Source: Candidatus Odinarchaeia archaeon (GTDB taxonomy: Archaea; Asgardarchaeota; Odinarchaeia; Odinarchaeales; Odinarchaeaceae). Taken from it: a stretch of 32,000 bases of DNA. The stretch spans positions 1 through 32,000 of the forward strand of contig JAHQXC010000003.1 in NCBI GenBank assembly GCA_029856525.1, in the 5' to 3' direction. Both the position numbers and the translations under genes were made by a program. This document shows, one piece after another, positions 17,259-22,966 of this stretch. A model generated the notes under the pieces. The model searched no databases, had not been told where the DNA came from, and saw nothing but the letters and a program-made list of their open reading frames with translations. Position 1 is the first letter of the stretch, and each line of letters begins with the position of its first letter.

Positions 17259-17540
17259 TCTTCTTCTCCTCCTATCAGTGTAAATAGGCTTTTTTTATTC
17301 CTTTTTAAACACTTCTGTTCGTTTAAAGAATTATTATAAAATAAGCTTAAACTTGTTCATAAATTTTTTTATACATTTTTAAATGCTTTTTTTATTTTTA
17401 AACTGTTTTTTATCGTTTTATTTTATGGGAATATGCTTTAATTCTCTTATTTTATGTTTATTTTAAATATTATCGGAATCTTTATATCGAACAATTGCAC
17501 AATTTTTATTAGAATTATTATATTTTTTTTCGGTGCCGTT

Positions 17541-19115
17541 ATGCTGAAAACCGAATTCCAGTCAATCATCGAGACAACAATTAAAGATTATCTTGATAAG
17601 AAGACCGTGTGGAGTGAATTTTTAGAATCACCTATAATATTTAACGACGATCATATTCAAATAGCTCGTAGAATATTTCAAAAATATGTTTCGAAGATAA
17701 TCCCTGAAACTATACTAGAAGACCTCGAATACCTGCTATTATATAAGCTATCTGACGCTTCGATACGCCAAAGATTACTGGAAGAGTGGAGTAATAAAAG
17801 GAATTCAAATATAGAAGACGCTACTAAAATCACATATGAATTCGAAGACGGATCGTGTTATAGAGCTGTCTACGATCTTATTCTTTATGATAAAATGACC
17901 AGCGGCTTATTCCTTCCAACGATTTTAGAAAACATGAAGAAATTAGAGAAATATAATTATACTCTCGATTTAAAAGACGCATGCCATTATATACGTCTTC
18001 ACTCTCTTTTAACCTATACAGTTGAGTTGGATACAACGGATATCAAAATCATAGAATTGCTGAGCAAAGACCCTCTTATCTCAAATAACGAGGCTGCTAG
18101 CCGGCTCAGATTATCGAGAAATACTTTTTCAAACCGTCTGCTAAGACTTCAGAAAAGAGGCTGCTTATTTTTCAATGGCAGAATAAACCTTGAAAGACTA
18201 GGTTTAAAAATTTTAACGATCATGACAGATCAGATTATTCCAAAGCTACCATATATGAGAATTGTTCAAGAGCTTAGAGGAGGGTCAACCGTCTACCTTT
18301 ATTCGTTTAACATTCCTGAAGAGTTTCTAACCTCTTTTATTGAACTGGTTAAACCTTATATAAGAAACGCTGAATACTGGATTGATGAAGGACCTGGACG
18401 GCACTCTCTCTCACTAAGAAATTCCTATGATACTGTGAATAAGAAATGGGCGTTCAACTGGGAGAACTGGGCGTTATGGGTGAGAAAGGTTTTAGATGAA
18501 TCATGGCATACGCTTTACGTTTCAGGTGATGTAGAGGAATCAACTCCAGGGGGAGAGCATAATCTCAGAATATTAGATTATGATATACTAGACTTAGAAT
18601 TATTAAATCAGCTAAGCTATGACTTCAAGCAGCCTATACGGGATATTTCACTTAAACTAGGGGTTTCACCTACCACTGTTTATGAGCGTAAAATTCGTTT
18701 AATATCTAACGGTGTTGTTAAACCAACTTTATTCGTTGAAAATATAGGGTTAGATGAACATGTATTTATTAAAATTAAAGGATCGGAGAAAATCATAAAT
18801 TCTGTGGAATCAGGCTTACTAGATCTGCCGAGTGTGTACATTTTTCGGGTTAGAAATTTGCAAGGGGAGAAAGCACTTAACGCATATCTTTTTCTTCCTA
18901 AAGGGAGTCTTGTAATGGTTGATTACACTCTTAAAAACTATTTGGAAGATATGAGTGAGGAGGTTGATTTCAAGCTTTTCTACAGGCTTAAGCAAAACTA
19001 TCTCTCTCAGGGTTTACCGTTCACCTTCGAAAACACGTATTTATATAAGGAAGAGTTTAGAAAATGGATTTTCCCGCAAAAAACTATTATTAAAATATTA
19101 AAAGAAGGTAGCTGA
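17541..19115 (+). CDS. Large transcriptional regulator with two Lrp/AsnC-type winged HTH domains
   Basis: HTH1 LDTTDIKIIELLSKDPLISNNEAASRLRLSRNTFSNRLLRLQKRG (about 18027-18161). HTH2 LDLELLNQLSYDFKQPIRDISLKLGVSPTTVYERKIRLISNGVV (about 18588-18720). Each is followed by a beta/alpha region. ATG 17541 with CGGTG SD preferred over 17454. Confidence 0.8.
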   Translation: MLKTEFQSIIETTIKDYLDKKTVWSEFLESPIIFNDDHIQIARRIFQKYVSKIIPETILEDLEYLLLYKLSDASIRQRLLEEWSNKRNSNIEDATKITYEFEDGSCYRAVYDLILYDKMTSGLFLPTILENMKKLEKYNYTLDLKDACHYIRLHSLLTYTVELDTTDIKIIELLSKDPLISNNEAASRLRLSRNTFSNRLLRLQKRGCLFFNGRINLERLGLKILTIMTDQIIPKLPYMRIVQELRGGSTVYLYSFNIPEEFLTSFIELVKPYIRNAEYWIDEGPGRHSLSLRNSYDTVNKKWAFNWENWALWVRKVLDESWHTLYVSGDVEESTPGGEHNLRILDYDILDLELLNQLSYDFKQPIRDISLKLGVSPTTVYERKIRLISNGVVKPTLFVENIGLDEHVFIKIKGSEKIINSVESGLLDLPSVYIFRVRNLQGEKALNAYLFLPKGSLVMVDYTLKNYLEDMSEEVDFKLFYRLKQNYLSQGLPFTFENTYLYKEEFRKWIFPQKTIIKILKEGS

Positions 19116-19122
19116 CTCCGTT

Positions 19123-19344
19123 TCAGCGGAGTCTAATCATGCATTTATTTTGGCTGACGTATACGTGGACTGGTCGACTGTATTTCTCCTCTAAATATCT
19201 CGCTATTTTTTTAAGCTGCTCTGATTGTTTAAATCTTCTAAAATCAGGGATATACGCTTCAATCCAGTCGTTAGCGTATTCCTTTACGACTATCCGGCTT
19301 GAAATAAGCTCTTTTAACTCGTTGAAATCACTGTACAGGCTCAT
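19123..19344 (-). CDS. Small hypothetical protein (alpha/beta)
   Basis: 73 aa. Strong SD GGAGGT 7 nt before ATG. Confidence 0.75.
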   Translation of the reverse strand: MSLYSDFNELKELISSRIVVKEYANDWIEAYIPDFRRFKQSEQLKKIARYLEEKYSRPVHVYVSQNKCMIRLR

Positions 19345-19557: not shown

Positions 19558-20064
19558 TTATAAGACGCGGTCTAAAGACTTCACTGCATAATCTAGTTCA
19601 TCGCTTAAACGGGTTAAATGGTATAATTTACTTGTTAAATGAGTGCTGTTCAAGAAAAGTTCTAAATGTTTTTTAATAGTAGCGGCTATATTTCCGAATA
19701 ATTCACGGGCAGCGTCGGAATCGCTTGTTTCTTCAGGGGAAGCCATAGATCTCTGCTCTAAGGCTTCGATAGCTATAAGTATTCTCTTTATATGCGTGTC
19801 TTTAACACCGTCTACGCTTATAATCTTCCCGTTACTATCTTTAAGAACCCCTGTAATCTGTTTTTTAACAAAGTTTATGAAAGCTGGAAGCTCATGGCCT
19901 ACGAATATAACTTCTAATTTATTTTTATCTTCTACTAGAACCACCGGCCCCTTTGGAAAATTCAGGGAATTAGGTATTAAAAGCCCTTTACTCCCACCCC
20001 AGTCTCTGATACGGCTTTTAAAACACTGGTTCAATAACCTGCTCTTATTCGAATTAAAACCCAT
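19558..20064 (-). CDS. AbrB/MazE-type swapped-hairpin protein with C-terminal helical domain
   Basis: KSRIRDWGGSKGLLIP matches the K-I-x-x-W-G-x-S-x-G-x-x-I-P AbrB/SpoVT pattern. SD GGGAGGGAG. Confidence 0.6.
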   Translation of the reverse strand: MGFNSNKSRLLNQCFKSRIRDWGGSKGLLIPNSLNFPKGPVVLVEDKNKLEVIFVGHELPAFINFVKKQITGVLKDSNGKIISVDGVKDTHIKRILIAIEALEQRSMASPEETSDSDAARELFGNIAATIKKHLELFLNSTHLTSKLYHLTRLSDELDYAVKSLDRVL

Positions 20065-20168: not shown

Positions 20169-21014
20169 TCATTTTTCAGTTTGAATTAAATCCTTTCCAG
20201 CAGACTCGAGAAATTCAAGCACTCTATTATAGTCTTTAAAGCGTATCCGCCCGTCTACACTTAAATATAAATCTTTTGTTTGTATCTCCGTCCAGCTTCC
20301 AAGCCGGCTTAAATCAATCTCTTGCCTTCTGTTAAGCTCTATTAAACCTTTCCCGACATCGCTGCCATGGAAAACAATTTTTTCAATGCCATCAGTGCCG
20401 CTTATCTCTCTGGAACAGGATAAGCTGGCTGTTAAAACATCTTTACAGTTTGAAACAAAATCTTTTATAACGTAAGCTGGGAAACTGATTTTATATAATT
20501 TTAAATTATAATTTTTTATTTCAGCTAAGATTTTATCGCTTTCTTTAAGACTGTTCCTGATAATTGCAACCGCTTTCTTCACGTCGAGAAATCCGATCAT
20601 GTTTTTATAAGCTTCCCGGATAGTGGATTTAACGCTTAATTTTTCAACGTTAAATAAATAATATGACTCTGATTTCAAAGGTTTTTCAATCCATAGATAA
20701 GTTTTATCAGGGTTATTTAACTTTTCTAAATCAAGTTTTAAACTATAGGCTGAAGAGATCTGTTCGATTTTATATAGTGTCCAATCATTCTCCCAGAAAA
20801 CGTTTTCAGAATTTAAAGTCTTTTGTAATGCTAAATATAAGCTGATTAACCTTGGCATCTTCTTGTAATCTAAACCTGCTGCTAACAATTCTTTAAGTTT
20901 AACACCTGTAAACCCCAGATACTTATAGAACTCCTTCAACTCGCTTTGACTGTATTGTTTTAATAATTTAGAAAGGGGGATTGTATCCACTGTTGGAATG
21001 TTTATTCTACTCAT
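20169..21014 (-). CDS. Hypothetical protein, possible CENP-N/Chl4-like
   Basis: 281-aa ORF, probably a real gene. The family call is tentative, from recalled motif similarity (GLDY..M..L..YL, DWTLYKI, FHGSDVGKGLIEL.RRQEIDLSRLGSW). Confidence 0.4.
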   Translation of the reverse strand: MSRINIPTVDTIPLSKLLKQYSQSELKEFYKYLGFTGVKLKELLAAGLDYKKMPRLISLYLALQKTLNSENVFWENDWTLYKIEQISSAYSLKLDLEKLNNPDKTYLWIEKPLKSESYYLFNVEKLSVKSTIREAYKNMIGFLDVKKAVAIIRNSLKESDKILAEIKNYNLKLYKISFPAYVIKDFVSNCKDVLTASLSCSREISGTDGIEKIVFHGSDVGKGLIELNRRQEIDLSRLGSWTEIQTKDLYLSVDGRIRFKDYNRVLEFLESAGKDLIQTEK

Positions 21015-21347
21015 ATATTCTGCTTCCAGTCTATAATAATTAAAAATATTTAATATTATCTCAAAGTATATAAGCTATAACCTGAATTAAAAGTTTAGAC
21101 TAATACACACCTTTAGTTTTAAGATAGGAGAGGCATCGATTAAAAATTGTTTTATTATAGCGGTGTGTAAAAACGTTTAAATCATGGATGCCACGGTTAA
21201 ATAATTATATTGTTAACGAGATAAAAACAGGTTTTTAGAAATATTTTATCAAAGCCATCATAGAAATCCATGGGTTTAAAGATATGAATGCTTCCGCTTT
21301 AACTTCACAGCAGACTATCTGATGTAGATAGGTGAGAGTTGATATTC

Positions 21348-21364
21348 TTATAAAGCTATATAAA
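21348..21364 (+). promoter_or_regulatory. Candidate TATA box(es) for the E2F-like transcript
   Basis: TTATAAA at 21348-21354 and TATATAAA at 21357-21364. Predicted start near G21381. Confidence 0.45.
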
Positions 21365-21381
21365 TTATAATTATAAATAAG

Positions 21382-21448
21382 GATGAGTGGTGGAAGCGGC
21401 CCTGAAACCTGTGAAGAGAAGAACTCTTCTCAATGAACAGGACTCATC
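21382..21448 (+). ncRNA. Candidate structured RNA (5' leader or sRNA)
   Basis: GATGAGT 21382-88 pairs with ACTCATC 21442-48. CCTG 21408-11 pairs with CAGG 21438-41. Internal hairpin GAAGAG-AAGAA-CTCTTC. Confidence 0.35.
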
Positions 21449-21510
21449 TGTGAAAAACAAGTTGTAGATCACCCGCTAATATTTGTTTAAAAATAATCGA
21501 GGCGTCTGTT

Positions 21511-21959: not shown

Positions 21960-22331
21960 TTAGCTTTTATCGCTGCCTAGTATTTCAGATATATCCGCTT
22001 CTTCCTTCCCCCTTCTCTTAATTTTAATTTCAGGTCCGCGTCCCTCTATTCTTCTCTCTAAAAGCATTATATCAGTCTTAGATATTTTAGATTGAAGGCC
22101 ATACTGGTTGACTATCATTATGATTATATTCTCTATTTCCGCTGCTACAGAGGGTTTTAACTTATAAAGTTCGTTAAGATATTTTAACGCGTCTTCTTCG
22201 CAGACTAATCCGAAAAATTTAGCTTTCTCCTGTTTCACCTTCTCCTGGTATTCTTTTAATTTAGCCTGCTCGTTGATTCTCTGAATCATCTCCTTCATTT
22301 TCTTAAGTCTTATCCGCTCTAATTCATCCAT
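21960..22331 (-). CDS. PDCD5-like double-stranded DNA-binding protein
   Basis: MDELERIRLKKMKEM N-terminus, EDALKYLNELYKLKPSVAAEIENIII, KISKTDIMLL, EIKIKRRG. Confidence 0.75.
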   Translation of the reverse strand: MDELERIRLKKMKEMIQRINEQAKLKEYQEKVKQEKAKFFGLVCEEDALKYLNELYKLKPSVAAEIENIIIMIVNQYGLQSKISKTDIMLLERRIEGRGPEIKIKRRGKEEADISEILGSDKS

Positions 22332-22618: not shown

Positions 22619-22846
22619 TTATTGTGAGGGTAGACTCTGTATTTTATATACTAGGCCGTTAACTCTTTTTAATTCTGCTGCGAGTCTAGCTGTGATGAAT
22701 TTTTCTCTTACAGGCGCGTTATCTGGTATAGCTGTGTATATTACTTTATTTTCTTGATCTACTATTATTATACATGAGTTTTTATCCGGTTCAGCTACCG
22801 GTTTTAGCTCCCCCTCCTCTGTTACACAGTAGATTTGTCTCCCCAT
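22619..22846 (-). CDS. Single-domain gelsolin-like protein (ProGel-like)
   Basis: IYCVTEEGEL...DKNSCIIIVDQENKVIY..PDNAPVREKFITARLAAELK follows the gelsolin-repeat order of strands and long helix. ATG 22846 (75 aa) preferred over 22882. Confidence 0.6.
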   Translation of the reverse strand: MGRQIYCVTEEGELKPVAEPDKNSCIIIVDQENKVIYTAIPDNAPVREKFITARLAAELKRVNGLVYKIQSLPSQ

Positions 22847-22966
22847 ATGAATCCCATTTTGTAGTTTAACTACATATAGCATAAATTAATATTTATACTT
22901 TTCCATCATTCTAAAAATATAAAAGTATATAAATACACTTTTCAAAAAATAAAGCTGGTAATCGTT

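Follow-up and report, generated by a model that had tools for sequence, protein, structure and literature searches.

What is a gene doing in an Odinarchaeia genome whose product resembles, by eye, a protein of the eukaryotic kinetochore? The question is raised by the first 32,000 nucleotides of contig JAHQXC010000003.1 of a Candidatus Odinarchaeia archaeon (assembly GCA_029856525.1; the whole stretch is called the window here), in which a preliminary description made from the letters alone had picked out a protein of 281 amino acids (aa), here P0001, and likened it to CENP-N/Chl4/Mis15. Comparing its predicted structure, relatives and genomic setting with known systems, we conclude, with a probability of roughly 0.7, that P0001 is a single-copy Asgard protein of the RdgC/CENP-L/CENP-N fold, likely homodimeric and clamping DNA through an open horseshoe.

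P0001 is the product of a real gene. The open reading frame (ORF) given for it in the preliminary description has the same position, strand, ATG start and translation (Table 1), and the strings listed there, KLLKQYSQSELKEFYKYL, AGLDYKKMPRLISLYL, DWTLYKI and KIVFHGSDVGKGLIELNRRQEIDLSRLGSW, all occur in the protein, the last as residues 212-241 (20292-20381 of the window). Relatives are found in other Odin genomes at 44-73% identity, the closest of them (59-73%) annotated as hypothetical proteins of Candidatus Odinarchaeum or Odinarchaeota, and more distant ones occur throughout the phylum. When 1.8 billion cluster representatives were searched exhaustively with phmmer, 20 relatives emerged, each 250-320 residues long, and a word-indexed homologue search added three family members; all named relatives are Asgard (Odinarchaeia, Freyarchaeum, Heimdallarchaeota and ‘Promethearchaeota’, the NCBI phylum name). 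The family alignment (A2) holds 21 members, and an enlarged one holds 61 sequences, including 37 genes taken from the phylum's genomes.

By the A2 profile, the source genome (1.32 Mb, 93% complete) carries exactly one copy of the family, and 108 of 400 genomes of the phylum have a match, each again a single copy. Members are present nearly throughout a dozen GTDB families (in 29/31, 21/22, 11/12 and 6/6 genomes, for instance) and, at the sensitivity of this profile, almost without match in others (0/19, 0/14 and 1/135). Some of these absences may reflect divergence past detection, because the gene outpaces every syntenic neighbour in evolution. It is the fastest-evolving gene of its block: identity to the counterpart in Odinarchaeum LCB_4 (locus L002) is 70% vs 78-93% for the neighbours, and 44% vs 58-82% for locus L003. 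In the sister family f2 (L004), where the neighbours keep 26-67% identity, P0001 is alignable only in its C-terminal 95 residues (41%). Between sister families, only the motif of the predicted dimer interface remains alignable. The window itself has a G+C content of 32-42% and its genes are archaeal.

The main evidence comes from the predicted fold. The AlphaFold model built on A2 reached a predicted local distance difference test (pLDDT) score of 83 and a predicted template modelling (pTM) score of 0.79; with four close homologues only, pLDDT fell to 37 and the model was unusable. Foldseek against the PDB placed CENP-L first (7r5s_L, E 7e-6), followed by Iml3 (1e-4), RdgC (1.6e-4) and CENP-N (5e-3), these four at a probability of about 1, with TBP just near E 0.1. 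Against AFDB Swiss-Prot, the matches were CENP-L (1e-5), Fta1 (8e-5), CENP-N (4e-4) and RdgC (7e-4), and here the CENP-N match spanned residues 14-234 of the query, including its N-terminal domain. VIA-align, which is independent of Foldseek and was run on 48,161 PDB representatives, gave Z scores of 9.1 for CENP-L, 8.2 for RdgC, 7.6 for Iml3 and 6.7-5.5 for CENP-N, then 3.0. In a second look at Foldseek's top 1000, the values were 9.6 for CENP-L, 8.6 for RdgC, 7.9 for Iml3 and 6.7-5.3 for CENP-N/Chl4; the top 17 entries were all of the RdgC/CENP-L/CENP-N superfamily, and a gap from Z 5.3 to 3.1 separated them from the next, unrelated entry. The VIA alignment with CENP-L joins model residues 67-274 to CENP-L 60-340 (188-192 residues, root-mean-square deviation 3.6-3.9), and that with RdgC covers model residues 70-280 (187 residues of the centre and base domains, Z 8.2-8.6).

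Searching the ESM Atlas by shape returned an ascomycete CENP-L cluster first (TM 0.55/0.62) and then uncharacterised Thermoproteota and Bacillota clusters, helicase fusions, RdgC and MJECL33/AF_0896. Among the AFDB fold clusters a probable family member came first (1.6e-13), followed by many unnamed prokaryotic proteins, DUF4868, CENP-L and RdgC; the viral fold library BFVD gave no match at E<=1e-3. In four of five fold libraries, then, the top match is CENP-L (the PDB, both with Foldseek and with VIA; AFDB Swiss-Prot; the ESM Atlas), and the order CENP-L, RdgC, CENP-N is consistent, the first two lying within one Z unit. CENP-L and CENP-N themselves compare at Z 7.3 (Tromer et al., PMC6601020). 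Because CENP-L, RdgC and CENP-N are the only clear matches, at scores comparable to this value, the placement of P0001 in their fold superfamily is well supported and, for a predicted model, solid.

The model has the domain order that the preliminary description proposed, and its sketch of a helical N-terminus and a beta-rich middle agrees with the prediction. A small basic N-terminal helical domain (helices at residues 15-18, 23-32, 37-46 and 55-66) would be followed by an alpha/beta core of the LN-homology type and, C-terminally, by a domain of sheet and helices. In the model, the latter two correspond both to the CENP-L arrangement, an LN-homology core followed by a dimerisation domain, and to the superfamily plan of centre and base domains that dimerise by antiparallel, side-by-side sheets. 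In the fold alignments with CENP-N, the first residues aligned are 12-14 of the model and 7-9 of CENP-N, near both N-termini. The family has a median isoelectric point (pI) of 9.3, unevenly spread in P0001 over the N-terminal domain (residues 1-66, 9.7), the core (8.8) and the acidic dimerisation domain (5.4).

The motifs flagged by eye proved to be the conserved ones. Of the 61 family members, 43 retain W78 and 53 retain Y/F81, and most have L-x-x-W-G-[FY] near residue 33, where P0001 has LGF. The C-terminal motif is the most conserved stretch of all: residues 201-240 form a peak of 2.2-2.6 bits against about 1.2 elsewhere, with G206, G209, G217, R230 and G239 invariant (61/61) and V220, G223, L227, [QH]231 and [ED]232 nearly so. 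When two copies were predicted together on A2, the homodimer scored 0.57 by ipSAE (interaction prediction score from aligned errors) in three runs, the best of three controls scoring 0.00; the partner had a pLDDT of at least 79, and contacts agreed between runs to at least 92%. In a benchmark, 20 of 30 proteins with structures solved as one-chain pairs attained this mark, against 1 of 23 solved as single chains. The predicted interface is formed by residues 205-238 of both copies, with strand 212-216 running antiparallel to itself (213 with 213), and it coincides with the conserved C-terminal motif. In the dimers of RexA, RdgC and Iml3-Chl4, too, an extended antiparallel sheet spans the interface (PMC11077077); the prediction for P0001 shows likeness to these, not binding.

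We propose that two copies of P0001 most likely pair through the invariant C-terminal motif, their beta-sheets extended by antiparallel strand pairing. The model core has no RdgC-type two-helix tip, and one interface is predicted, though residues unnamed there may still touch; on this picture, the dimer would probably take the shape of an open horseshoe, as in CENP-LN, and not close into a ring. By analogy with Iml3-Chl4, CENP-L/N and RdgC, the basic inner face of this horseshoe could clamp one DNA duplex, and the protein may serve in chromosome organisation, recombination or segregation.

How close is P0001 to each of the named relatives? CENP-L (Iml3, Fta1; PF13092; PDB 7XHN_L, 7R5S_L, 7PKN_L and 4IT3), a subunit of the CCAN (constitutive centromere-associated network) in the inner kinetochore, has the closest core geometry, the same succession of LN-homology core and C-terminal dimerisation domain, and the pairing of edge strands about a two-fold axis that is predicted for P0001. 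It differs in having no significant sequence similarity and no N-terminal helical domain, and in pairing with its paralogue CENP-N, whereas P0001 is single-copy and predicted to pair with itself. We know of no other CCAN components in Asgard archaea. CENP-N (Chl4, Mis15; PF05238; PDB 6EQT, 6C0W, 7BXT_M and 7PKN_N) shares with the model the three-part architecture of helical N-domain, core and dimerisation domain, and a fold match of Z 5.3-6.7 that runs from both N-termini. Its pyrin domain, however, has about 80 residues, compared with four helices in about 55 residues in P0001, which also falls short of human CENP-N and yeast Chl4 by about 60-170 residues and has no long linker. RdgC, the bacterial recombination-associated DNA ring (PF04381; PDB 2OWL and 2OWY), is likewise basic and a homodimer joined through the base-domain sheet, as predicted for P0001, but the model has no tip or finger helices and no second predicted interface, and it adds an N-terminal helical domain. 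A CENP-L-like partner, whose presence the preliminary description had suggested looking for, is not encoded in the source genome as a second copy of the family, and with one family copy in each of the 108 genomes no heterodimer of the CENP-N type with a CENP-L paralogue is apparent.

Sequence comparison speaks more faintly. P0001 has no Pfam match at E<=1 and none in NCBIfam, PADLOC or the PDB sequences, the last searched both by phmmer and with the 21-member profile, which found nothing related. For the Pfam CENP-N model PF05238, whose curated cut-off is 25 bits, P0001 gave no match and the best of 61 relatives reached 13.2 bits (E 0.055); for PF04381 (RdgC), one relative at best reached 13.2 bits (E 0.055). 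PF13092 (CENP-L) gave no match to P0001 at E<=1 and is absent among the relatives' sub-threshold matches listed (25 of 45 families). Since both the CENP-N and RdgC models found nothing, P0001 belongs to neither family by the curated criterion.

Three sub-threshold matches nevertheless lie where the fold alignments would place them, CENP-N at both ends and RdgC in the middle. Positions 366-395 of the 410 in the Pfam CENP-N profile match the C-terminal motif in two relatives, P0013 (E 0.19) and a G305 gene of GTDB family f28 (E 0.055). Positions 9-116 of the 61-member profile align to the N-terminus of CENP-N in its maltose-binding protein fusion 7bxt_M in the PDB (E 0.22), with ‘LkkWGF’ on ‘LQKWGF’ and ‘nrwWklYkl’ on ‘KRVWSVYHM’. 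Pfam RdgC positions 122-157 match residues 154-189 of one Freyarchaeum-type relative (E 0.055). The likeness to CENP-N at L..WGF, W-x-[LIV]-[YF] and the C-terminal motif is colinear, and it falls at the very places, the N-terminus with the W-x-[LIV]-[YF] strand and the C-terminal motif, on which the by-eye comparison had been based. Because CENP-N and RdgC were prior hypotheses, the search space was large (24,736 models in Pfam and 177,635 sequences in the PDB) and each of the three matches lies where it was expected, they lend modest support to a real, very remote homology with the superfamily, and the two to CENP-N tilt it slightly towards the eukaryotic branch. The preliminary assignment thus holds at the level of the fold, CENP-N/Chl4 being among the only clear structural matches, and gives way at the level of the family: because the Pfam cut-off is not reached, the core is nearer CENP-L (Z 9.6) and RdgC (8.6) than CENP-N (6.7) and the gene is single-copy, P0001 is best described as a relative within the CENP-L/N/RdgC superfamily and not as a demonstrated CENP-N orthologue.

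Some other leads were set aside. A feature search of the Atlas yielded just weak leads, namely hypothetical proteins of Bacillota (0.94, recognition low) and, at rank 68, a CENP-N cluster (score 0.80), and a match of residues 1-90 alone to GAPS4b_N (Atlas, 0.79) is at noise level. An origin in a defence system was rejected on the grounds of the negative PADLOC result, the absence of BFVD matches at E<=1e-3, the housekeeping-type neighbours and the stable synteny in Odin genomes.

Several points weigh against a DNA clamp of this particular kinship. No sequence match is significant, none of the three sub-threshold matches being so alone, and in the search of the 61-member profile against the PDB an unrelated MarR protein outranks CENP-N. 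Searched in six frames of the whole genome, PF05238 and PF04381 gave nothing at E<=10 (the E. coli control passes the PF04381 cut-off). CENP-L and RdgC are statistically tied as matches to the model (Z 9.6 vs 8.6), TM-scores are modest (0.44-0.55), and Z values of 9-10 lie only moderately over VIA's stated background. Some relatives are acidic (pI 5.4). The success of the dimer prediction may partly reflect the predictor's memory, since CENP-LN and RdgC dimers have already been solved. Finally, many families of bacteria and archaea that are still uncharacterised have this fold, as do helicase fusions, and because so many prokaryotic families share it, descent of CENP-L/N from the Asgard family is a hypothesis.

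The last points lead to the strongest competing explanation, which we regard as possible but doubtful: P0001 may be one of many prokaryotic RdgC-like DNA-binding proteins, no closer to CENP-L/N than RdgC is, and may act in recombination control or other DNA transactions. The candidates are RdgC, lambda RexA (8TWQ), KwaB/DUF4868, MJECL33/AF_0896 and the RdgC-like proteins of histone operons in Bacillus and haloarchaea, all with the same general scaffold, some with added terminal domains and some with links to chromatin proteins. RdgC scores within one Z unit of CENP-L, and one relative has the sub-threshold RdgC match; uncharacterised prokaryotic proteins, helicase fusions, DUF4868, MJECL33 and DUF6731 reach similar scores in the AFDB clusters or the Atlas, and some of them are matched over the N-terminal domain too. 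RdgC-like proteins with extra N- and C-terminal domains have been described in Bacillus and Halobacteria (PMC11390915). However, CENP-L comes first in four of the five libraries, the model has no two-helix tip, one interface alone is predicted, unlike the closed RdgC ring, and two separate colinear matches point to CENP-N. RexA (Z 2.5) and DUF4868 (Foldseek E 5e-4) are far weaker matches, and whereas such proteins sit mostly in defence or mobile contexts, the gene of the P0001 family is a stable part of the chromosome, a core gene in single copy that is restricted to Asgard archaea and lies outside defence islands.

A superfamily relative that may clamp DNA, as we favour for P0001, could still stand in more than one relation to the kinetochore. 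A specific sister relation to CENP-L/N over the RdgC-like prokaryotic families is plausible but unproven. P0001 resembles the hypothetical homodimeric singleton proposed as the source of CENP-L and CENP-N, and its family looks as an unduplicated CENP-L/N singleton would be expected to look in the lineage nearest to eukaryotes, and is a candidate for it. That the Asgard family is the direct archaeal descendant of this homodimeric ancestor, with a CENP-N-type N-domain and dimerisation motif and a GTPase linkage prefiguring CENP-M, is a more speculative proposal, which we consider unlikely; if true, part of the DNA-clamping core of the inner kinetochore would be older than eukaryotes. A concrete singleton candidate makes the origin of this clamp experimentally addressable, and were the family just another RdgC-like branch, it would still be an uncharacterised, widely conserved Asgard chromosomal protein.

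The GTPase linkage concerns a Rab-like GTPase gene that adjoins the CENP-L/N-like gene in GTDB families f1, f2, f11, f19 and f32. It is divergent from the latter in f19; in f32 it lies immediately upstream, co-directional, with an 8-nt overlap, and in f11 it does so in 3/3 genomes, with 8-44 nt between the two genes and an AGGAG ahead of the start codon (loci of f11 and f32: L063:4343-5847, L064, L065 and L053:4400-5867). The co-directional arrangement in these two families suggests that the two genes are transcribed together and that their products possibly interact physically. When the f11 GTPase served as query, the copy beside the CENP-L/N-like gene was the best among 8, 21 and 35 paralogues in three genomes and the fifth of 65 in a fourth. 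By this result, one orthologous GTPase is linked to the CENP-L/N-like gene across distant families, four to five in number. The gene-adjacent GTPases keep all G motifs. In the human CCAN, CENP-M, which has a small-GTPase fold, sits on the dimerisation domains of CENP-LN (PMC9235857), and the linkage is a suggestive parallel to it.

Given this linkage, P0001 could instead be primarily an effector or scaffold of the neighbouring GTPase, with DNA not its ligand and the likeness to clamps merely ancestral. The orthologous GTPase in five families, with tight co-directional pairs in two of them, is what such a role would predict, but we consider it improbable. At the corresponding position the GTPase gene is present in L003, L004 and L069, split in LCB_4 and absent here, where the gap contains no ORF, the contig has no GTPase match and tblastn finds no remnant. 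The clean deletion here and the split in LCB_4 look like stepwise loss within one genus, and since the GTPase is gone from the window and split in LCB_4, it is dispensable in Odinarchaeum, although the CENP-L/N-like gene is intact and conserved. Moreover, most sampled families (f8, f9, f10, f13, f15, f16 and f26-f28) have no adjacent GTPase, and the CENP-L/N-like family is basic overall. In LCB_4, the split GTPase is represented by ORFs of 94 and 83 aa (L002:7362-7900).

It is very improbable that the likeness arose by convergence on a widespread TBP-like alpha/beta arrangement, without homology to CENP-L/N or RdgC: sequence identity to all matches is 8-15% and the Z values are in the range VIA calls middling, but the alignments cover two consecutive domains (about 190 residues) in conserved order, TBP itself scores Z 2.0-2.5, the predicted dimer has the edge-strand pairing of known dimers, and the Pfam sub-threshold matches of the relatives, scattered over about 45 noise families, include exactly CENP-N and RdgC.

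We found no report of an Asgard CENP-L/N-like protein in the literature searched, including the main texts of two 2026 structure-based surveys of Asgard eukaryotic signature proteins, and those main texts make no mention of CENP, centromere or RdgC. New here are the coincidence of predicted interface and conservation, the colinear sub-threshold matches to CENP-N and RdgC, the phylum-wide single-copy census and the linkage to an orthologous GTPase.

Table 1. The gene for P0001, its domains and motifs, and neighbouring features (positions in the window)
Feature	Position	Strand	Remarks
P0001 gene, 281 aa	20169..21014	-	ATG start; ORF and translation, homologues, model, fold matches
N-terminal four-helix domain, aa 9-66	20817..20990	-	Basic; candidate equivalent of the pyrin domain in CENP-N
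LN-homology-like alpha/beta core, aa 67-190	20445..20816	-	VIA alignments with CENP-L and RdgC
W-T-L-Y, aa 78-81	20772..20783	-	First core strand (78-85 in the model); part of DWTLYKI
C-terminal beta-sheet/helix domain, aa 191-281	20172..20444	-	Predicted dimerisation domain; within the CENP-L, Iml3 and RdgC alignments
Family signature, aa 203-241: E-I-S-G-x-x-G-[LIV]-x-x-I-x-[FLV]-x-G-x-[DN]-V-x-x-G-x3-L-x2-R-[QH]-[ED]-[IV]...G-P/S-W	20292..20408	-	Predicted two-fold dimer interface
Intergenic gap	21015..21510	.	Site of the divergent Rab-like GTPase gene in related genomes; gene absent here
168-aa neighbour, family unknown	19558..20064	-	Downstream, Odin lineage only (GTDB f1, f2, plus L007); synteny, alignment
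73-aa conserved protein of no known family	19123-19344	-	Follows the gene in the Odin lineage
553-aa protein with two AsnC-type helix-turn-helix (HTH) domains (residues ~192-236 and 375-430)	17454-19115	+	Conserved in the same block
E2F/DP-family winged-helix protein, 148 aa	21511-21957	+	PF02319, 36.3 bits (cut-off 25.7)
PDCD5-like dsDNA-binding protein	21960-22331	-	PF01984
Conserved 87-aa protein	22619-22882	-	

The CENP-L/N-like gene stands among stable, non-defence neighbours of housekeeping type. In the Odin order, the genes run radical-SAM, adenylate-kinase-like, 87 aa, PDCD5-like, E2F/DP winged helix, divergent Rab-like GTPase, CENP-L/N-like gene, 168 aa, 73 aa and a 530-aa double-HTH protein. 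Since locus L004 belongs to the order of the window (by a GTDB-based table), the full block is a feature of the Odin order only. The E2F/DP gene is kept beside the GTPase and CENP-L/N-like genes throughout this order; its domain is otherwise typical of eukaryotic cell-cycle regulators. For the 87-aa protein, the best Pfam match is DUF7395 (E 0.16), so that Pfam lends a gelsolin-like identity no support. The HTH protein of the window is of unusually large size for a regulator of the Lrp/AsnC type.

Gaps of 104 and 213 nt before the 168- and 73-aa genes suggest that each has its own promoter. The 168-aa protein has no match in Pfam, NCBIfam or the Atlas; its N-terminus contains a W-G-G-S-K-G-L-L-I-P stretch and its C-terminus is helical. 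In another lineage, a protein of 142-148 aa is encoded 15-22 nt before the CENP-L/N-like gene (L008:5533-5979 and L009:5558-5986) and was rejected as a counterpart of the 168-aa neighbour, alignment showing no homology. It carries paired cysteine motifs typical of a zinc ribbon, and a ThiF-family gene lies nearby.

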